From Candidatus Woesearchaeota archaeon (GTDB taxonomy: Archaea > Nanobdellota > Nanobdellia > Woesearchaeales > UBA583): a stretch of DNA of 64,000 nt. Shown piece after piece: positions 32,211 to 40,531 of the stretch (positions are counted from its first letter, which is position 1; the number at the start of each line of letters is the position of its first letter). The notes below the pieces were generated by a model that saw nothing but the letters and a program-made list of their open reading frames with translations, ran no database searches and had not been told where the DNA came from. The translations under genes were made by a program, and so were the position numbers. The stretch is from positions 1,120,001 through 1,184,000 of the forward strand of contig OZ242164.1 in NCBI GenBank assembly GCA_965205335.1, given 5' to 3'.

Positions 32211-33617
32211 CTACAATTTCTTAACTTCTCTCATTAAAATCTTATTAACAATCTGGGGTTTTGCAGTTCCCTTAGTTTCTTTCATAACAATTCCCACAAT
32301 AAAATTTAATGCCTTATTATTCCCATTCTTATAATCATCAACTGCCTTGGGAGAACCCAAAAGAGCCTTCCTAACCAACTCCTCAATTAACTTTGTATCC
32401 TGAATTAAAAGCAAACCTTTCTTATTAACATACTTCTCAACATCAAACTTCTCATCATACAATTTCTCTAAAACTTTCTGGGTAGTTGTATATGAAATAC
32501 TTTCCTTTCCTAAAAGTTCAATTAGTTTTGTAATTTCTTCTTTAATATCTTTCTTTTCCAAATCTATAAAGGACTCACTATGATAATTCAAAACCCTCAA
32601 AATTTCTCGCCTTAAAAACAATCCAACCTCTTTTGGATGCAAATTCTTATCAACAGCATGCTCAAAAATCTGAGTTAAATACAAATTTGAAACAAGAACC
32701 TCGACTGTCTCATCATCAAAACCATATTTAGAATACTTCTCTCTTTTAACACATGGCAACTCTGGAAGTTCACTTTTAAGTTTTCTAATAATTTCATCTG
32801 ATATAACAAGATTGGGAAGATCAGGTTCTGGTGTAAACATATAATCTTGAGCATTTTCCTTTGATCTCATAAACTCTGTTTCATCAAGTTCCTCATTATA
32901 ACGTCTTGTTTCCTGCAAAACCTTCTTCCCATTAGAAACTAACTCTTTCTGCCTTCTAATCTCAGCTTCTGCTGCAGCAACAATATTACTATATGAATTC
33001 ACATTCTTAATCTCAACCCTTTGGAATCCTGATTTCTTTATTGAAACATTAACATCAGATTTAATACCAAATTCTTCATTATAAATATCTAAATACTTTC
33101 CAATAAGAATTAATTCTTTAAGCCACTTCTTTAACTTATCTGTTGAATGAAAATCAGGCATTGTAACGATTTCAGCCAGAGGAAAACCAGCCCTGTTATA
33201 ATTAATCTCTCCGGTTTTAGGGTCCCATGCTGCAGGATTTTCTTCAAGATGAATTTCGCTCATTCTAATTCCATTTAACTTTCCAGAAATTGCATTCTCC
33301 TTAATATGCCCTCCTGAAACAGTTCTCTGATACCCAGAAGGCATATCTGGCCAGACATAGTGTTTTCTCTGAAAATTAGTTCTCTTTGTAATCTTTGAAT
33401 TGCATACAAGTCCAAGTTTTAAAACTCCAAAAAGTGCTCTCTTATTTGGGAGCATTGGTTTTGAACCTGGTTGGCTTGTGCACCTTGGACAAATTGTTGT
33501 ATTAACCTCTGTATTCTTACTTGGAATCCTACAATTGCAGAAAAGTTTCTCATTTGTTTTAAGATGCATATGAACCTCAAGCCCAATCTTAACATCATGT
33601 GAACTTTTTTCACTCAT
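32211..33617 (-). CDS. gatB: Asp/Glu-tRNA amidotransferase subunit B
   Basis: IGLEVH, FQRKHYVWPDMPSGYQ, RVEIKNVNS, PEPDLP and a C-terminal Yqey-like domain. Confidence 0.93.
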   Translation of the reverse strand: MSEKSSHDVKIGLEVHMHLKTNEKLFCNCRIPSKNTEVNTTICPRCTSQPGSKPMLPNKRALFGVLKLGLVCNSKITKRTNFQRKHYVWPDMPSGYQRTVSGGHIKENAISGKLNGIRMSEIHLEENPAAWDPKTGEINYNRAGFPLAEIVTMPDFHSTDKLKKWLKELILIGKYLDIYNEEFGIKSDVNVSIKKSGFQRVEIKNVNSYSNIVAAAEAEIRRQKELVSNGKKVLQETRRYNEELDETEFMRSKENAQDYMFTPEPDLPNLVISDEIIRKLKSELPELPCVKREKYSKYGFDDETVEVLVSNLYLTQIFEHAVDKNLHPKEVGLFLRREILRVLNYHSESFIDLEKKDIKEEITKLIELLGKESISYTTTQKVLEKLYDEKFDVEKYVNKKGLLLIQDTKLIEELVRKALLGSPKAVDDYKNGNNKALNFIVGIVMKETKGTAKPQIVNKILMREVKKL

Positions 33618-33801
33618 AAATTTCCCAATGACAATTAATTTATATATCTTATTATACAGAATTTATTTAACAGAATTAATAATATTGGTGATGAGAAGAG
33701 TTTCCTCCTCCCATCTGGATACCTTAGTAACAAACAACAATTTATAAATTTATTCTTTAAGTTTTGCGTTCTTATATAAATAAATAATTATTTTTATAAT
33801 T

Positions 33802-34662
33802 ATGGATAAAATAATTCTCAAACAGCAGAAAAATGAAATTACTGAATATCACATCTATTTAAGACTATCTGAACTAGCAAAAGATGAACATAATGTCAGG
33901 ATTTTAAAGAAGATTGCTAAGCAGGAATTAAAACATTATGAATTCTGGAAATCAATAACAAGAAAAGAAATTGCACCAGACAAATTCAGAATTTCATTAT
34001 ATGTCTTTCTTGCAAGATTCGTTGATTTATCATTTGCTCTAAGGTATATGGAAAAAGGGGAAGAGAGGGCAAAAAAATTCTATGAAGTAATGAAACATAA
34101 ATATCCCCAAGTTAAAAAAATCCAAAAAGATGAAGAAGAACATGAGAACAAACTAATAGGAATTCTTAATGATGAAAGATTAACTTACTCAAGTTCAATT
34201 GTCCTCGGATTAAACGATGCATTAGTTGAATTAACAGGAACATTAGCAGGTTTAACATTTGCTTTTGGGAACTCTTTAATAGTTGGAATTACCGGACTTA
34301 TAATGGGAGTTGCGGCGTCACTTTCAATGGCGGCTTCAGAGTATTTATCAAACGAAGAGGAAGAAACCAAAGACAAAAAATCATCTATAAAATCAGCCTT
34401 ATATACTTGGATGGCATATATAATATCTGTAGTTCTATTAGTTTCTCCATATTTCATATTTGATAAAATAATGCATGCCTTTGCAGTAATGCTTACAATG
34501 ACAATATTAATAATATTTAGTTATACATTCTACATATCAGTTGCCAAAGGATTAAGCTTTAAAAAGAAATTCTCTCAAATGGCATTGATTTCACTAAGCG
34601 TTGCATTAATTAGTTTCATAATAGGAAGACTTGTAAGCATTTATTTTGGAATAGAAGTATAA
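33802..34662 (+). CDS. rubrerythrin-like/VIT1-CCC1 metal transporter
   Basis: N-terminal ExxH ferritin-like motifs; VLGLNDALVELTG and SLSMAASEYLS. Confidence 0.88.
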   Translation: MDKIILKQQKNEITEYHIYLRLSELAKDEHNVRILKKIAKQELKHYEFWKSITRKEIAPDKFRISLYVFLARFVDLSFALRYMEKGEERAKKFYEVMKHKYPQVKKIQKDEEEHENKLIGILNDERLTYSSSIVLGLNDALVELTGTLAGLTFAFGNSLIVGITGLIMGVAASLSMAASEYLSNEEEETKDKKSSIKSALYTWMAYIISVVLLVSPYFIFDKIMHAFAVMLTMTILIIFSYTFYISVAKGLSFKKKFSQMALISLSVALISFIIGRLVSIYFGIEV

Positions 34663-34773
34663 AATTTACAAGAGAACCTTTAACATACTTATTAATTCTT
34701 TATATTTATACGACTCTTATACAACTCAAGTGTAATATAAAACTATATAAACTAAAAGTTCGTATAGCACATT

Positions 34774-35598
34774 ATGGATATTGAATCACTTTCCCAAATA
34801 TTAAAAAAAATTGAAACTGAGATTAAACTTAGGGGATTTTCAAAACAGACATCTAAAATGTATGTCTTATACAATCGTCAGTTTTTAGAGCGTACAAAAC
34901 TTAATCCTAAAAATGTCTGTGATGATGACATTAAATTATTTCTTGCAGAAAAGTTAGAAGAAGAACTTAGCACCAAATCAATTGCTTTAATTAAAGCCGC
35001 TCTCATTTTTTATTATAATGAGATTTTAGGAAATAACTTTGACATAAAAACTCCAAAAATTAAAAAATCAACACCAGTTGTTATGACAAAAGAAGAGATT
35101 GCAAGATTATTTTCTGTAATTAAAAACAAAAAACACCTTATCATAATGAAACTATATTATGGCTCAGGCTTTCGTTTATCTGAGGCAATTAGCCTAAAAA
35201 AGAAAGATATAGATTTTAATGAGAATGTAATATGGATTCGTGATGGTAAAGGAGGAAAAGACAGAATGAGCATAATCTCCCAATCTATGTCAAAACAGTT
35301 AGAGGAATTCACAGAGCATATTGGAAAAGATGATTTTGTCTTTACAAATTCAAGAGGAGATCCCATATCGCAAAGACAGGTCCAGAAAATAATTGAGAAA
35401 GCTAAAATAGAAGCAAACATTCAGAAAGACGTTCATATTCACACATTAAGGCATTCTTTTGCAACTCATTTATTAGAAGCAGGAACGGACATAAGAAAAA
35501 TTCAGGAACTCTTAGGACATAGCGATTTATCGACAACACAGATTTATACAAGAGTAACAAATGAAGAACTAAAAAAAGTCAAAAGTCCGTTAGATTAA
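34774..35598 (+). CDS. xerA: XerA-type tyrosine recombinase
   Basis: GFRLSE, GKGGKDR, HTLRHSFATHLLE and LLGHSDLSTTQIY; no IntI-specific insertion. Confidence 0.88.
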   Translation: MDIESLSQILKKIETEIKLRGFSKQTSKMYVLYNRQFLERTKLNPKNVCDDDIKLFLAEKLEEELSTKSIALIKAALIFYYNEILGNNFDIKTPKIKKSTPVVMTKEEIARLFSVIKNKKHLIIMKLYYGSGFRLSEAISLKKKDIDFNENVIWIRDGKGGKDRMSIISQSMSKQLEEFTEHIGKDDFVFTNSRGDPISQRQVQKIIEKAKIEANIQKDVHIHTLRHSFATHLLEAGTDIRKIQELLGHSDLSTTQIYTRVTNEELKKVKSPLD

Positions 35599-35808
35599 TT
35601 CTTGCAGAAGATTTTATTTTCCCTAAATATTATTAAGGAACTTTCTTAAAACTTTTAATTCCATAGAATTGAGCATAGAATATAATCCTATTATTTAAAT
35701 AAAAAGACTCAATTAAAAACATTGTAAAGATTAAATATGTGACATTTATACTACTTCATTTTTAGGATATGAAGATGTATCTCTATGTCCATTCTGCATT
35801 CTGAGAAC

Positions 35809-36357
35809 CTATGTACTTTCCAAGGCACAACTATCAGGTGGTGGGATTATAATATCTCTACTATATTTTCCTCTACATCTCTCTATTTCTTTCAACACAG
35901 CACGTGGATCATCATGTGTGGAAAGAAGATATTTTTTGGGTGTTAAAACTGTTAGTTCAAGACTATTACATTCTTTAGGAATGGTATTATGATGGTTTGT
36001 GAGACATACCAAATTTATCTCTGACATAGCATTTTTATTTTTATTTTTAAGATGTGTGAATATCCTCCTTGCATTTTCTATTTCATTTAAAATAGATGAT
36101 TTTTCATTAGTAGCTATCACTTTAATATAGCGTTTAATCGTTAATTCTTCAAAATATAAATCTAAAATAGCAGGAAATCCATTATCAATGTTTAATTTAA
36201 GGTCTTTGCAAGAACTACTAACCGTATCTTGTGTTATATTTTTTTGATGAGAATAAAGATAGTCTTGTATATGGTTATGTATAGAATAAGGATAATCTGA
36301 CCTGAGAATATAACCTCGTTCACAAATCTCATAAAGATTTCTATCTCTTCCTAACAT
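35809..36357 (-). CDS. hypothetical protein, paralog of 36613-37158
   Basis: Shared YxxCER, DY, DLY and (V/I)ATN(E/D) motifs and a Pro-containing C-terminus. Confidence 0.7.
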   Translation of the reverse strand: MLGRDRNLYEICERGYILRSDYPYSIHNHIQDYLYSHQKNITQDTVSSSCKDLKLNIDNGFPAILDLYFEELTIKRYIKVIATNEKSSILNEIENARRIFTHLKNKNKNAMSEINLVCLTNHHNTIPKECNSLELTVLTPKKYLLSTHDDPRAVLKEIERCRGKYSRDIIIPPPDSCALEST

Positions 36358-36462
36358 AACTATTAAGTAATAACATTTTATTTATAAAATTATGTATTGA
36401 TTAATCTTAAATTATCTGCTAAAAATTCCAAAATTACTTTTCATTTTCCTAACTTAGCATAT

Positions 36463-36537
36463 GATTTATCTACAACGCAGATTTACACAAGGGTAACAAA
36501 CGAAGAATTAAAGAAAGTCAAAAGTCCATTAGATTAA
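36463..36537 (+). repeat. second copy of the xerA 3' end (24 codons plus stop)
   Basis: Matches 35524-35598 with 8 substitutions; encodes the identical peptide DLSTTQIYTRVTNEELKKVKSPLD*. Confidence 0.95.
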
Positions 36538-36612
36538 TTCTTACAAGAATCTAAGGTTATAACCTTTCTATTGTTTTCAGTACTTTTTTTATCTCTAGGT
36601 CCATTATTTTTA

Positions 36613-37158
36613 TCACTTAAGAGCCCCTTCAGGTATAGGAATTCCAATAAACTTTAGGTTATTATTATTATTATTATTTTTATCATTATTTCTATACACT
36701 TTATCTGCTGCTTCTTGGTCACCCCTTGAAAGAATATTGTAATTAAAACTTATAATTCGTACATCAATTTTATTACATTCTTTAGAGAAGGGTTCAATTA
36801 GATGTACCAAATGTCCATTTATTTTATTATTATTTTTTCCATCTGCAATTCTCTTATATCCCTTAAATATATTTTTCATTCCACATATGTGAGCTAGGCG
36901 ATCATTAGTGGCTACAATTTCAGCGTAGTGTATTTTCCCTCCTATTTTTCCAATATATAGATCGAAAAAGATATTTGGTTCCCCAGATTTTTCTAACGTG
37001 GCATTTGTACTCTTAAATGTAATATCCACTCCATTAATTAGCATTTTATGTGGATTATGGTATAAATGCTGTCTTATAATTTCTTGTAATTTATGATTAT
37101 AATCAGGCTTCGTTACATAATAACGTTCACAATTATCATAAGTTTCTTCCTCTATCAT
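36613..37158 (-). CDS. hypothetical protein, paralog of 35809-36357, with an (AAT)n poly-Asn tract
   Basis: Motifs shared with the paralog; poly-Asn encoded near 36658-36678. Confidence 0.7.
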   Translation of the reverse strand: MIEEETYDNCERYYVTKPDYNHKLQEIIRQHLYHNPHKMLINGVDITFKSTNATLEKSGEPNIFFDLYIGKIGGKIHYAEIVATNDRLAHICGMKNIFKGYKRIADGKNNNKINGHLVHLIEPFSKECNKIDVRIISFNYNILSRGDQEAADKVYRNNDKNNNNNNNLKFIGIPIPEGALK

Positions 37159-37203
37159 GACTATTATGTATCTATCTTAGATTTATAAATTTATTGTATT
37201 GAT

Positions 37204-37331
37204 GGCTCTGTCCGAAAATTCAAGAGAACTTAAAATGTTATATAAATAAAGCAATTTTTGACAAATATTTTTTTTCTTTGATTGAATATAGTTAGCATAA
37301 ATTTTGGAAAAAACAATTTTCGGACAGAGCC
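37204..37331. mobile_element. 128-bp MITE
   Basis: Perfect 17-bp TIR GGCTCTGTCCGAAAATT; 8-bp TSD GTATTGAT at 37196-37203 and 37332-37339. Confidence 0.9.
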
Positions 37332-37340
37332 GTATTGATT

Positions 37341-37427
37341 GACTTTGTTCAAAAAGTCTATATTTTGTGTTATAAATTTTTAAAATATACTATATATTGA
37401 TATTTTAACTACTTTTTGAACAAAGCT
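37341..37427. mobile_element. 87-bp MITE (same family as 62972-63058, opposite orientation)
   Basis: TIR core CTTTGTTCAAAAAGT; 9-bp TSD GTATTGATT/ATATTGATT; interior homologous to 62972-63058. Confidence 0.85.
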
Positions 37428-37470
37428 ATATTGATTATTCTTAAATTTAAATAAAAAAATAAATAAATAT

Positions 37471-38118
37471 TTATCTTGTGTAGTAGAAACCAGCGCAGAA
37501 TATATGCTCATTAGATCTCTCACAATATGTTGATTTAAACGCTTCTTCATTAGTTCTTGGAACTGTGAATATATATTCTATCCATTTTCCTTCTTCTGTA
37601 GTATTAGAAATTTCCTCTCCGTAACGATTACCTAATCTATCTACTAAATGAGATATCTGATTATTCTCCAAATCTTTTCTGAAGGGATGAGCAACATTAT
37701 TTCCTCCTTTAATCACAGATACATATATATCATCTTCTACATATACTCCATCGCTAACATCTTTTAATGTTTTCTGAGGATCTTGGTTGAAATCTTCAAT
37801 TGACCTTTTTACCAAAGCAACAGACTGCTTTGCCTCATATGATTTATATCCTTCCCCATCTGCAATTCTCTTTGTTCTCTTATCTAAGTCCGAAGGTTCA
37901 TTCATGTCATATTTCTTTATATGTTTATTGTTACAATATTCTTCCCTATTCCATTTTCCTCTTTTGTCAGATATGCATTTCTTATCACCATACCCTCCTC
38001 CGTAACATTTCCCTTTCTTGTCATCATAATTATCGTGAACTGAACTAAAAACAAAAATCCCAAACAATAACACATGTATGACCACCAATACTACTATAAT
38101 TTCTTTAAAGTGTTTCAT
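37471..38118 (-). CDS. membrane-anchored single Cache-domain protein
   Basis: N-terminal TM; DIYVSV..VAHP..DRLGNRY..GKWIEY..KSTY..CAGFY. Confidence 0.8.
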   Translation of the reverse strand: MKHFKEIIVVLVVIHVLLFGIFVFSSVHDNYDDKKGKCYGGGYGDKKCISDKRGKWNREEYCNNKHIKKYDMNEPSDLDKRTKRIADGEGYKSYEAKQSVALVKRSIEDFNQDPQKTLKDVSDGVYVEDDIYVSVIKGGNNVAHPFRKDLENNQISHLVDRLGNRYGEEISNTTEEGKWIEYIFTVPRTNEEAFKSTYCERSNEHIFCAGFYYTR

Positions 38119-38272
38119 TTTTATTTCCTAATATTACATAAGTTAAAATATAAGAATAACTTATAACAATTCAGGGCAACAACAAGTATTTAAACTTTTT
38201 GTTTATTGAGAATTAGATTTCAAAATACTCTTCTTCCTAATACAAATAACAAAATTATATAAACAAAACTCT

Positions 38273-39649
38273 TTGAAAAATATTATGAACTTGAAAAACT
38301 TTGGTGTGGAAACAAATGAAGAAAAAAACAAACCAAAAGAAATAATTGACTCTAAACTGAACCTTAACACCAAAGAAATTGCCCAAAAATTTAAACTCCA
38401 GAACACTGAAACATATCTCCCTTGGTTTCTTAAATATGAACTAAATGATTACAAAGACCTAATAATAACATCTCAAATTCAGAAAATAATAGACTTCATT
38501 GAAACCTTTCAAACCAAAAACAAAAAAAAAGCAATCCTTCTATATGGTCCTGCCGGCTCTGGAAAAACAACAACACTAACTCTTTTTGGAAACCATTACA
38601 ACTACGAAGTACTTGAACTGAACGCATCAGATAACAGAAATAAAAAATCAATTGAAGAAACCGTTGGAATTGCAGTAAAACAAAAATCCTTATTTGGAAA
38701 AAACAAACTAATACTGATAGATGAAGCAGACGGAGTTTCAGGCAGAGATGACAGAGGAGGAATAAGTGCACTTGCAAAAATAATAAAAGAATCAAACTAC
38801 CCAATAGCATTCACAGCAAACGATGGAGAATCCGAAAAAATAAAAGTCCTAAAAAAATTATGCATTTACATTGACTTTGAAAATCATTCACAAGAACTCC
38901 TTCTAAAAATCGGAATGAAAATCCTAAAAGCCGAAAATATAAAATACAAAAAGGAAGAACTAAAAGAATTCATCTTAAAAAGAAATGAGACAGACATTCG
39001 TGGTTTCATAAACGACTTACAGGCATTATCATACAATAACGAACTGAATGTACAGGAAGACTTAGAACTAAGAGATTACAAAAAAAAAATAGAAACCCTT
39101 CTAAACAAAATCTATTTCTCATACCCAGAAGACTCATTTAAAAGCGGATATAACACAGATGTAAACTTAGACGAACTATTTCTTTATCTTGAAGAGAACA
39201 CTCCAGATGTATACTCAAAAACTGCTTTAATCACTGCTCTAAACGAAATATCAAAAGCAGACATTTTCAGAGGCAGAATAAGAAAATGGCAGCATTGGAG
39301 ATTTTTAGTATACGTAAACTTTTACCTAACATACGCAGTATCCAATGCAAAAGATGTTCCCAAAAAAATAGACAAATACAAAAGAAACAGAAGAATACTT
39401 TCCAAATGGATTTATGCAAACAAAGTAAACAGCCTCTCACAAAGAACCAAACTTCAAAAAAAAAACAAAGACCCGGAAAAACTAATAGAAAAACTCTCAA
39501 AACTATACAAACGCTCAGCAAAAAAAACAAGAGCGGAAGACTTATTTTACTTTGCAAAAATATATCAAAACAATGAACAATTCCAAAAAGAAATGGACAA
39601 AACACTTCAAATAAACGATTCCGAAAAAAAAACATTACTTGAATTATGA
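38273..39649 (+). CDS. rfcL: replication factor C large subunit
   Basis: GPAGSGKTT, LELNASDNR, IDEADG and ISKADIFRGRIRKWQHWRF. Confidence 0.92.
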   Translation: MKNIMNLKNFGVETNEEKNKPKEIIDSKLNLNTKEIAQKFKLQNTETYLPWFLKYELNDYKDLIITSQIQKIIDFIETFQTKNKKKAILLYGPAGSGKTTTLTLFGNHYNYEVLELNASDNRNKKSIEETVGIAVKQKSLFGKNKLILIDEADGVSGRDDRGGISALAKIIKESNYPIAFTANDGESEKIKVLKKLCIYIDFENHSQELLLKIGMKILKAENIKYKKEELKEFILKRNETDIRGFINDLQALSYNNELNVQEDLELRDYKKKIETLLNKIYFSYPEDSFKSGYNTDVNLDELFLYLEENTPDVYSKTALITALNEISKADIFRGRIRKWQHWRFLVYVNFYLTYAVSNAKDVPKKIDKYKRNRRILSKWIYANKVNSLSQRTKLQKKNKDPEKLIEKLSKLYKRSAKKTRAEDLFYFAKIYQNNEQFQKEMDKTLQINDSEKKTLLEL

Positions 39650-39694
39650 ATAATCAAACCTTAAATAACTCACACAAAAAAATTAAACACAGAT

Positions 39695-40216
39695 TTAATC
39701 TGCTTGATAATACCCAGCGCAGAGTATATGTTCCTCAACTTTCCTACAGTATGTTGATTTAGGCGCCTGTTTATCAGTCTCGGGAATAGTGAAAACATAA
39801 TTTATCCATTTACCATCTTCTGTTGTAGTAACAATATCTTTCCCAAAATAATAATCATTAACATCTTTCAGCTCTGTCACTTTAGTATTTTCTAAATCCT
39901 TCCTATATGGATGTCCTACAATATATTCCCCCTTAACTGCAAAAACATACAAATCATTATAAATATAAGTATCACCCCTAATACCACTTAAAGTGCTCTC
40001 CTTGTCAATATTATAATCTCTAATTGCACTATCAATTAACTTCATTGCCAGCTTTACTCTCACAGAATAATCATCATAACTATCTCTCATATCATCTCCA
40101 TAATAATCCATCTTTCTATAAGAATTCTTATCATGAGCAGAAATTACCACAAAAGCCCCTAAAAGCAACACCACTAAAACTAACAACACTACAACTGTTT
40201 CTTTAAAATGTTTCAT
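39695..40216 (-). CDS. membrane-anchored single Cache-domain protein (paralog of 37471-38118)
   Basis: Same MKHFKE start; DLYVFA..GHPYRKDLEN..GKWINYVF..KSTY..CAGYY. Confidence 0.8.
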   Translation of the reverse strand: MKHFKETVVVLLVLVVLLLGAFVVISAHDKNSYRKMDYYGDDMRDSYDDYSVRVKLAMKLIDSAIRDYNIDKESTLSGIRGDTYIYNDLYVFAVKGEYIVGHPYRKDLENTKVTELKDVNDYYFGKDIVTTTEDGKWINYVFTIPETDKQAPKSTYCRKVEEHILCAGYYQAD

Positions 40217-40380
40217 CTTGATTTTTCCCAATATTATTGCACTACATTATTGTATACAAAAATATTATACAAATATCCATTCAACTTAATATTTAAACTT
40301 TTCCATTAAAAAATTATAATAACAGACGCAAAACAATTTTAATGTTTACAACTAAATAAAGAAATAAAAAATACTCAATG

Positions 40381-40531
40381 AACTAGAACACATATTCACT
40401 AAAATTTTTGTTCTATTCCAATAATATCAAAATAAGTGCTAAAAATTTCAAGTGTAACTTAAACTACAATTTTAATCATAGCATTTTTACTAAAAAAAAT
40501 TATGCCTGAATTGCAATTTATTAAATCAGAA
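40381..40531 (+). repeat. dispersed intergenic repeat, copy 1
   Basis: Shares collinear blocks with 61275-61374, including the exact 27-mer CCTGAATTGCAATTTATTAAATCAGAA. Confidence 0.8.

Follow-up and report, generated by a model that had tools for sequence, protein, structure and literature searches.

Downstream of the gene for the tyrosine recombinase XerA in a Candidatus Woesearchaeota archaeon, the last 24 codons of xerA occur a second time, 939 nucleotides (nt) further on, with silent changes only. We describe this duplication in a 64,000-nt stretch of the genome (contig OZ242164.1, positions 1,120,001 to 1,184,000 of the forward strand; hereafter the window), in which each of the two tails, T1 and T2, is followed by a convergent gene of ~180 amino acids (aa), cargo1 and cargo2, respectively. 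Tail duplications of like kind recur at xerA in three other species of the genus, and gene ends are repeated in the same manner around inserts at unrelated genes. The explanation that we favor, with slightly more confidence than doubt, is that a foreign tail-plus-gene unit from a related lineage recombined into the end of xerA and displaced the native tail.

The 3′ End of xerA Is Duplicated with Silent Changes Only

The source genome (G000) is a single 1.2-Mb contig of 31% G+C, in which the window corresponds to G000:C1:1120001-1184000. The duplicated segment is made up of the following features.

34774..35598, + strand: xerA, an intact tyrosine recombinase gene (274 aa; PF00589, E value 4.7e-47; NCBIfam XerA equivalog above cut-off)
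35524..35609, + strand: T1, the tail in use; it comprises the last 24 sense codons of xerA (catalytic Tyr included) plus the stop codon and ~11 nt of 3′ flank
36463..36549, + strand: T2, a 5′-truncated, putatively displaced xerA tail that differs from T1 at 8 silent sites and has kept its stop codon
35809..36357, − strand: cargo1, a 182-aa ORFan without family assignment, convergent with xerA
36613..37158, − strand: cargo2, a 181-aa paralog of cargo1 (24% identity)

The product of xerA is a true XerA, which scores 232.5 bits against a cut-off of 220 for NCBIfam model NF040815 and is the sole PF00589 match in complete G000, that is, the only tyrosine recombinase of the genome. Its catalytic Tyr motif (..TQIYTRV..) is located in T1. 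A genome self-BLAST aligns T1 and T2 as a direct repeat of 86/87 nt (88.5% identity, E value 5e-20), and a repeat search of the window pairs 35524-35606 with 36463-36545 (83 nt, 89%); the whole 1.2-Mb genome contains just these two tail copies. Their homology ends abruptly ~11 nt beyond the stop codon, and when the two units are aligned as DNA beyond the tail, similarity is at the chance level for AT-rich DNA.

Both tails translate as DLSTTQIYTRVTNEELKKVKSPLD followed by a stop. The eight differences between them, exactly those listed in a preliminary description of this DNA, fall at seven third codon positions and at one first position of a Leu codon (CTA/TTA), with 0 amino-acid changes; eight random substitutions would all be silent with a probability of ~1.5e-5 (Monte Carlo, 200,000 trials). 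This silent-only signature agrees with the view, put forward in that description, that both tails evolved inside functional xerA genes. Identical codons number 16 of 24, as against 10.9 expected at silent-site saturation under the codon usage of the genome (P=0.023). The two tails are far apart at silent sites, and the neutral divergence of the two units is deep; judging from the sequences, their likeness appears to be owed mainly to the fixed protein sequence. Since the tails are not close at silent sites, the contrast that the preliminary description drew between a strongly diverged cargo and a little-diverged tail does exist but is partly an effect of protein constraint.

Several short repeats lie in and around the tails. 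A 15-nt inverted repeat (36408-36422 and 36454-36468, 87% complementary, 31-nt loop) has a right arm that spans the left junction of T2. A search of 35440-35700 for inverted repeats of 9 nt or more within 40 nt gave none, so T1 contains no dyad-symmetric site. The sequence GATTAATTCTT stands at the xerA stop codon in both tails (35592-35602 and 36531-36541), and one-indel variants of it, GATTAATCTT and GATTATTCTT, lie upstream of the cargo genes (36398-36407 and 37431-37440), where they are homologous to one another. Each cargo gene is bracketed in this way by a short direct repeat of the GATTAATTCTT type (10-11-mer; rough chance estimate ~0.01).

Tail Duplications Recur Downstream of xerA in Related Species

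The genus comparison covered 19 other species, and in 18 of them the sequence extended ~400 nt or more beyond xerA. Tail copies are present just downstream of xerA in three of these 18, namely G016 (66 nt, 92% identity), G012 (64 nt, 83%) and G017 (26 nt, 96%), which makes four tail duplications among 19 genus genomes, window included. What lies between the tails is a ~58-nt GC-rich element, E, in G016 and G012, another GC-rich hairpin sequence in G017 and an ORFan gene in the window, and the left boundary of the copy falls at DLSTT in the window, at TQIYT in G016 and G012 and at NELKK in G017. In a tree of the XerA body, from which the tail was excluded, G016 groups with the duplication-free G018 (100/99) and G012 with G017 (100/98). 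Because the inserts differ, the left boundaries are three in number and the tree shows these groupings, the four duplications are independent.

When the four genomes are pooled and only clear homology is counted, 22 codons differ silently between the tails and none by replacement, and the stop codon is switched in two cases; the silent differences include a TCG/AGT serine pair in G012. Neutral drift after duplication in place would give ~64% replacements (estimated from a 25% silent fraction). Duplication in place followed by neutral decay of T2 was therefore rejected, as it predicts mostly replacements and none is seen in the four genomes.

The surroundings of xerA turn over as well. The gene that follows xerA differs in nearly every one of 16 relatives, so that the fixed arrangement which the preliminary description had named as contrary to its proposal is not what the relatives show. 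The replication factor C (RFC) large-subunit gene comes 360-1371 nt after xerA in seven relatives and 2675 nt after it in the window; it is not found within 3.7-8.8 kb after xerA in seven other relatives, and it lies upstream of xerA in G005 and G014. Two partial xerA matches in other families are uninformative: that in G027 is cut by a contig end, and that in G021 is an isolated 81-aa XerA C-terminal fragment (L098 3300-3542, G021:C92; 56% identity to residues 194-274), which has a gene for a small membrane protein on one side and one for a HerA-like ATPase on the other and lies apart from the intact xerA of that genome.

The Same Architecture Is Found at Unrelated Genes

When G000 was scanned for gene ends that are repeated downstream, three further loci came to light, listed here together with the two copies of E at xerA.

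1114657-1115331 (L093, G000:C1:1114657-1116863): rnhB, with a 188-nt tail copy (85%) 1516 nt downstream
701647-703218 (L094, G000:C1:700825-703218): RecJ-like gene (DHH + OB fold), repeat spacing 818 nt
72764-73255 (L095, 67908-73255): GIY-YIG gene, repeat spacing 4854 nt
L039 3013-3070: E at xerA in G016
L040 2640-2694: E at xerA in G012

The rnhB locus, which lies ~3-5 kb before the start of the window, holds a convergent 366-aa ORFan as its insert, and its tail copy is decayed, with stops and an indel. At the RecJ-like gene, a convergent 203-aa open reading frame is followed by a 59-nt copy with five silent and three replacement differences. The insert at the GIY-YIG gene is larger (4.9 kb) and contains several genes, of which two run in the same direction as the host gene.

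Element E is a structured element with a conserved 5′ hairpin (NGGGCUUGAGC-loop-GCGAAACCCN), a covarying outer stem and a variable 3′ hairpin. A covariance model detects 24 copies in 9 of the 20 genus genomes and none in G000; two of the 24 are at xerA tails. Besides L039 and L040, E is recorded at loci L062-L085 and L100-L106. In 20 of the 24 copies, the 30-120 nt situated 5′ of E are repeated directly 3′ of it, with flank-repeat scores above the 99th percentile of 540 cross-locus controls; 15 of the 24 exceed the control maximum. The hosts of E are housekeeping genes, namely rps10, rpoA'', rpl34e, rnhB, a trxB-like gene, ftsX, mgtE, xerA and tRNA genes. Read by eye, the downstream copies are silent-only at rps10 (five differences) and rnhB (three), and they carry replacements or a frameshift at rpoA'' and mgtE. 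Because this anchor-duplicating architecture is found at unrelated genes, a homology-driven rather than a xerA-specific mechanism is indicated.

Of 151 genomes sampled from other families of the order, 7 contain E-like elements that share this conserved 5′ hairpin, and in three of these seven (L101, L102 and L105) they lie beside tRNA 5′ ends. Neither E nor the xerA locus has a match in Rfam. In the relative G008, the rnhB tail is duplicated around E, which makes rnhB a second recurrent anchor. Tandem [flank-E] arrays of two to three units are seen in G003 C56, G017 C36, G015 C10 and G019 C2, and some copies of E have a TATA-like box ~27 nt upstream, as if transcribed on their own. Element E, with its duplicated flanks, merits a study of its own.

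Cargo1 and Cargo2 Are Distant Paralogs with Homologous Flanks

As the preliminary description had it, each tail copy precedes a convergent gene of ~180 aa (182 and 181 aa), and the two genes are distant paralogs (24% identity, E value 1e-10) whose flanks contain the following shared motifs.

35778..35793, + strand: 16-nt motif TATCTCTATGTCCATT in the cargo1 3′ flank, 16-31 nt past the cargo1 stop codon
36590..36605, + strand: 16-nt motif TATCTCTAGGTCCATT, 8-23 nt past the cargo2 stop codon
36381..36413, unstranded: upstream of cargo1, TATA-like TTTATAAA (36381-36388) and conserved 20-nt motif GTATTGATTAATCTTAAATT (36394-36413)
37182..37447, unstranded: upstream of cargo2, TTTATAAA (37182-37189) and the 20-nt motif (37428-37447), with two miniature inverted-repeat transposable elements (MITEs) between them

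The homology of the flanks, likewise claimed before, is real. The 16-nt motif TATCTCTAKGTCCATT and the 20-nt motif GTATTGATTAWTCTTAAATT each match twice in the window, with 0.18 and 0.09 matches expected, respectively. The 20-nt motif has no further match in the genome at up to two mismatches, and the 16-nt motif has one, with two mismatches, on the minus strand (G000 205167). In both cargo genes, TTTATAAA, a presumed archaeal promoter element, lies 24-31 nt upstream of the ATG, and once the two MITEs are removed the upstream regions are ~88% alike over ~33 nt (read by eye). Across the family, residues D66, A82-T83-N84 and E129-C130-N131 are invariant. Because of the TATA-like TTTATAAA upstream and the invariant residues that have been kept, cargo1 and cargo2 are probably real, expressed genes.

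The family itself is rare and resembles little else. A full HMMER scan of 1.84 billion proteins recovered five representatives, to which P0006 is added, and all members come from G000 or from metagenome assemblies. Word-indexed searches with the cargo proteins recovered nothing beyond the proteins of the window itself, no convincing homolog turned up in 400 genomes of the order, and scans of metagenome and genome contigs revealed no further cargo-family locus. The pieces P0004 (57 aa, N-terminal) and P0005 (143 aa, C-terminal) lie on one contig of 41,593 nt and are probably a split (frameshifted) copy of a P0006-like cargo gene. Over 27 nt, cargo2 (36839-36865) and the first of the Cache-domain genes further downstream (37856-37882) agree at 85% identity, both encoding RIADG.

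No match to the cargo proteins at curated cut-offs was found in Pfam, NCBIfam, PHROGs or PADLOC. Cargo1 alone gives weak, nuclease-flavored matches (PADLOC CARF_PDDEXK, E value 1.4e-4; Apea-like HEPN, E value 0.04), cargo2 has no family match at all, and none of the five family members has a Pfam match at cut-off to the known nuclease families (LAGLIDADG, GIY-YIG, HNH, PD-(D/E)xK). The best hit of a PDB profile search has an E value of 0.22, and ESM Atlas scores reach at most 0.88, to unnamed clusters. Two AlphaFold models have a predicted local distance difference test (pLDDT) score of 51.2 and 52.8 and, when searched with Foldseek, show no match in the PDB at an E value of 0.001 or below. 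The predicted secondary structure has a β-β-α-β core. As a guess of low confidence, the cargo might be a fast-evolving gene of the conflict type.

Displacement of a Native Tail Is the Favored Explanation

How did a second, silently altered tail come to lie downstream of xerA? We infer, at odds a little better than even, that a unit consisting of a xerA tail, its 3′ flank, cargo1 and the cargo1 promoter region came in from outside and replaced the native end of the gene. The donor would be a related lineage with a cargo-family gene likewise convergent to xerA, and the conserved 3′ end of xerA would have served as the homology anchor. The unit would have entered by single-crossover (Campbell-type) integration of a ~0.94-kb circle or, alternatively, by homology-facilitated illegitimate recombination of a linear fragment. 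T1, the incoming tail, would now complete xerA, and T2, the former tail, would have been pushed downstream together with the resident cargo2. T2 would be a young relic, the silent divergence having arisen while both tails served a functional xerA in separate lineages. More generally, the xerA-to-RFC slot would be a site for variable genes, with the highly conserved xerA tail as a recurrent anchor. In support of this explanation, the insert is without an integrase and T1 is without a dyad site, and the sample contains co-occurring strains of 85-95% identity, which makes donors plausible.

Several points weigh against it. Of all sampled tails, the one most similar to a given T2 is in every case the T1 found in the same genome (53/60, 52/54, 49/60 and 29/33), so that the similarities point to no particular donor lineage and are compatible with an origin in place. 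That donor and recipient tails of 20-24 aa should be identical at deep silent divergence is somewhat unexpected; a rough estimate puts the joint probability of identical tails at ~0.01 if omega is ~0.04. Divergence is far greater between cargo1 and cargo2 than between the tails, and because of their 24% identity the two genes would be old allelic lineages or very fast evolving rather than orthologs from close strains. No empty site, circle or one-unit genome is present in the sample contigs, although contigs cannot show absence. Finally, the use of xerA as an anchor (4/19 genomes) is far above that of a random gene, and a purely generic mechanism is not a full explanation of it.

Of the earlier proposals, replacement of the xerA 3′ end by an incoming unit that displaced the old one is the best reading of the silent-only tails. 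That of a hypervariable locus built by repeated capture holds in part: the region turns over, with four duplications in 19 genomes and slot genes that differ between species, but an array finds no support, as two tails fit one insertion beside a resident pair of xerA and cargo2.

Competing Explanations

The preliminary description had allowed that the two units might be alleles of co-assembled strains. Such an assembly artefact, in which the alleles would have been joined at the shared tail, is highly improbable. It is true that the data are a metagenome in which related strains co-occur and that depth at the locus is 2-8x, but an independent Logan contig from the same sample (run X2, record 12) covers 35601-37231 and differs from it nowhere, bridging cargo1, the T2 junction and cargo2, and the left flank of T2 is not xerA sequence, which makes it a true novel junction. 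Because of this contig and this flank, a strain chimera is unlikely. Moreover, T1 and T2 share no exact run longer than 14 nt, which is not enough for 31-mers to collapse, and a structure of like kind is present in three other genomes. The sample data are the contigs of one metagenome sample; among them, none joins T1 directly to the sequence that follows T2 and none was seen to carry a circle junction, which speaks neither for nor against excision. One joint (37331 to 38319) has 24 letters on one side only and was not used, and two other joints in one X2 contig resemble the cargo gene of a diverged relative.

Tandem duplication in place of the segment from tail to cargo, with T2 kept by selection as a peptide or a homology arm, is unlikely too. 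A single tandem event would account for the whole structure, the units are homologous from end to end (tail, 16-nt motif, cargo, promoter motif) and every T2 is nearest its own T1. T2 also lies within an open frame (36397-36537, with a TTG start), and the E copies of G016 and G012 contain an ATG that shares the frame of T2. A peptide made from T2 would carry the catalytic-Tyr/α-N region, the C-terminal α-N helix of XerA having been described as a regulatory switch (PMC3646895). However, the T2 peptide has no canonical start or evident promoter in the window, the copy in G017 is just 11 codons long, and downstream copies elsewhere carry replacements, stops or frameshifts (rpoA'' and mgtE, by eye; rnhB in G000). 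It is also unlikely that XerA, or an integrase acting in trans, captured integrase-less tail-plus-gene cassettes by using the xerA 3′ end as an attachment site. XerA is the only PF00589 protein in G000, its tails have been struck in 4/19 genus genomes and by 2/24 E copies, far above the expectation per gene, and E sits at the same codon boundary in two species that are not sisters (G016 and G012). Conserved noncoding motifs at the unit ends, the GATTAAT(T)CTT-like 10-11-mer at the xerA stop that recurs upstream of both cargo genes and the 15-nt inverted repeat across the T2 junction point the same way. Against these stand the three different left boundaries among four genomes, the lack of any inverted repeat of at least 9 nt within 40 nt in 35440-35700, the lack of a match to attC or anything else in Rfam, and the size of XerA (274 aa) and its score below the integron-integrase cut-off. 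Two tails for two cargo genes amount to one insertion and not to n+1 sites for n cassettes, and rnhB, the RecJ-like gene, rps10, rpoA'' and tRNA genes, which share the architecture, cannot share one core site. The XerA-mediated, repeated-capture array of the preliminary description accordingly finds no support at the locus, which has two tails only, no third tail after cargo2, no dyad site in the tail and no attC match in Rfam. An improbable reading makes cargo1 and cargo2 free-standing homing endonucleases that cut cargo-less xerA alleles, the tail being co-converted in a cleavage-immune form; the insertion at mitochondrial atp6 of Allomyces is an analogue. Silent changes beside the insert match a co-conversion tract that confers immunity, and both the weak nuclease-flavored matches of cargo1 and the predicted β-β-α-β core fit, but no nuclease family is reached at curated cut-offs in five family members, cargo2 has no match whatsoever, none of the invariant residues (D66, ATN82-84, ECN129-131) forms a conserved catalytic motif, the models are of low confidence (pLDDT 51-53) and without a fold match, and the tail duplications in the relatives have no gene in the insert.

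A diversity-generating retroelement or retro-copy was tried and rejected, as the differences between the tails (G/T, A/G, T/C, A/G, T/C, C/T, A/G, G/A) are not adenine-specific and G000 has no RVT_1. Across the genomes, E and reverse transcriptase show no co-occurrence (E in nine genomes, reverse transcriptase in six, overlap two).

Relation to Known Systems

Gene-tail displacement, or insertion with a surrogate 3′ end, is a known kind of event. In E. coli, the prophage e14 lies between icd and the C-terminal pseudogene icdC, the copies differing mainly by silent and conservative changes (PMC13626634). As described there for e14 and phage 21, the intact gene runs into the insert and a 5′-truncated C-terminal copy stands at the far end. 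In the window, too, a repeat of the target's 3′ end flanks the insert and the proximal copy completes xerA. Unlike e14, a prophage of 15 kb that encodes an integrase and uses a defined att site, the xerA insert is 0.85 kb long, holds one ORFan and has no integrase, and its target is the sole tyrosine-recombinase gene.

In type VI secretion system (T6SS) effector modules and in those of Rhs proteins, displaced modules leave orphan genes, and homology-facilitated illegitimate recombination has been proposed (PMC5361080). These systems, together with contact-dependent growth inhibition (CDI), have a conserved 5′ anchor at which an incoming 3′ module with a small gene displaces the old module and its partner gene, much as T2 retains 24 conserved codons of xerA and has a gene of its own behind it. 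There, the toxin tails vary and the immunity genes are co-oriented, whereas at xerA the two tails encode the same protein sequence, variation resides in a convergent gene and the cargo matches no toxin or immunity family.

Integrons, archaeal ones included, resemble the locus in that single-gene units are stacked beside a tyrosine-recombinase gene and old units are pushed back (10.1101/2022.02.06.479319). We nevertheless rejected integron membership on the integrase score, the 3′ position and the absence of an attC-like match. XerA is without the IntI-specific domain, its match to TIGR02249 reaching 227 bits against a cut-off of 265, in two stretches over 274 aa; the units follow the 3′ end of xerA instead of an attI on the 5′ side of intI, and they are bounded by a gene-tail repeat. 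No relevant Rfam match, for attC or otherwise, was obtained in 33500-40500 at E values up to 5, the presence of an attC model in Rfam 15 being unverified.

Predicted dif sites lie close to xerA in Sulfolobales (PMC2958812). Integrative mobile elements exploiting Xer (IMEX), such as CTX-phi and TLC-phi, are comparable as integrase-less elements that would rely on the host Xer, but in the window there is no 11-6-11 dyad site in or beside the tail, and the repeat is 26-89 nt of coding sequence whose boundaries differ between genomes. The xerA/RFC slot, with its different genes in different species, is also like the minimal mobile elements of Neisseria, which are variable gene slots between conserved genes, exchanged by homologous recombination; double-crossover exchange of that kind, however, leaves no duplication of the flanking gene. 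What is unusual about the present case is that the inserts are integrase-free with one gene or none, that the anchor is the sole recombinase gene and that the event recurs across species.

The Remainder of the Slot

Beyond cargo2, the slot is completed by two MITEs and a Cache-domain gene and is closed by the RFC gene.

37204-37331: MITE 1, 128 nt, with a perfect 17-nt terminal inverted repeat GGCTCTGTCCGAAAATT, flanked by GTATTGAT
37341-37428: MITE-like palindrome 2 (MITE 2), 88 nt, with ends CTTTGTTCAAAAAGT, flanked by TATTGAT
37471..38118, − strand: Cache-domain gene (sCache_2, dCache_2), the last gene of the variable slot
38273..39649, + strand: replication factor C large subunit (NF003229 above cut-off), the conserved right border of the slot

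MITE 1 has 53 BLAST matches in G000, 39 of them near full length, and its contig has a depth of ~290-390 in the sample, as against 2-8 for its surroundings. MITE 2 has four near-full copies in G000 and adjoins MITE 1 in the cargo2 upstream region; both are flanked by (G)TATTGAT. Small Cache-domain paralogs (37471-38118 and 39695-40231), both on the minus strand, lie on either side of the RFC large-subunit gene. Besides the genes for the archaeal XerA equivalog and the RFC large subunit, the window contains a GatE-like gene, and these three genes mark the organism as an archaeon. The GC skew of G000 is irregular, and its origin and terminus are not placeable.

Implications for Gene Flux in Small-Genome Archaea

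A wider reading, which we put forward only tentatively, is that these duplications are traces of undescribed integrase-less mini-cassettes in small-genome archaea, which would spread by using the copy of a housekeeping-gene end as a portable homology arm. The payload would range from the ~58-nt E to single ORFan genes, and the arms would come from xerA, rnhB, rps10, rpoA'' and tRNAs. After one crossover in the arm, or integration by XerA itself at xerA, the target would still be intact and its old end would persist as a downstream repeat, which would in turn be the arm for the next transfer. Selection at the level of lineages for transferability would account for downstream copies that are silent-only.

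If the favored explanation is right, small streamlined archaeal genomes would acquire single genes without an element-borne integrase, the conserved end of an essential gene acting as a landing pad and the surrogate tail preserving its function. With the only recombinase gene as a recurrent anchor, XerA may take part, and E is a candidate for a new family of mobile structured elements, absent from Rfam. The xerA-to-RFC slot would then be a place to look for fast-evolving genes, possibly related to conflict, and displacement of gene tails would offer organisms poor in classical mobile elements a concrete route for gene flux.

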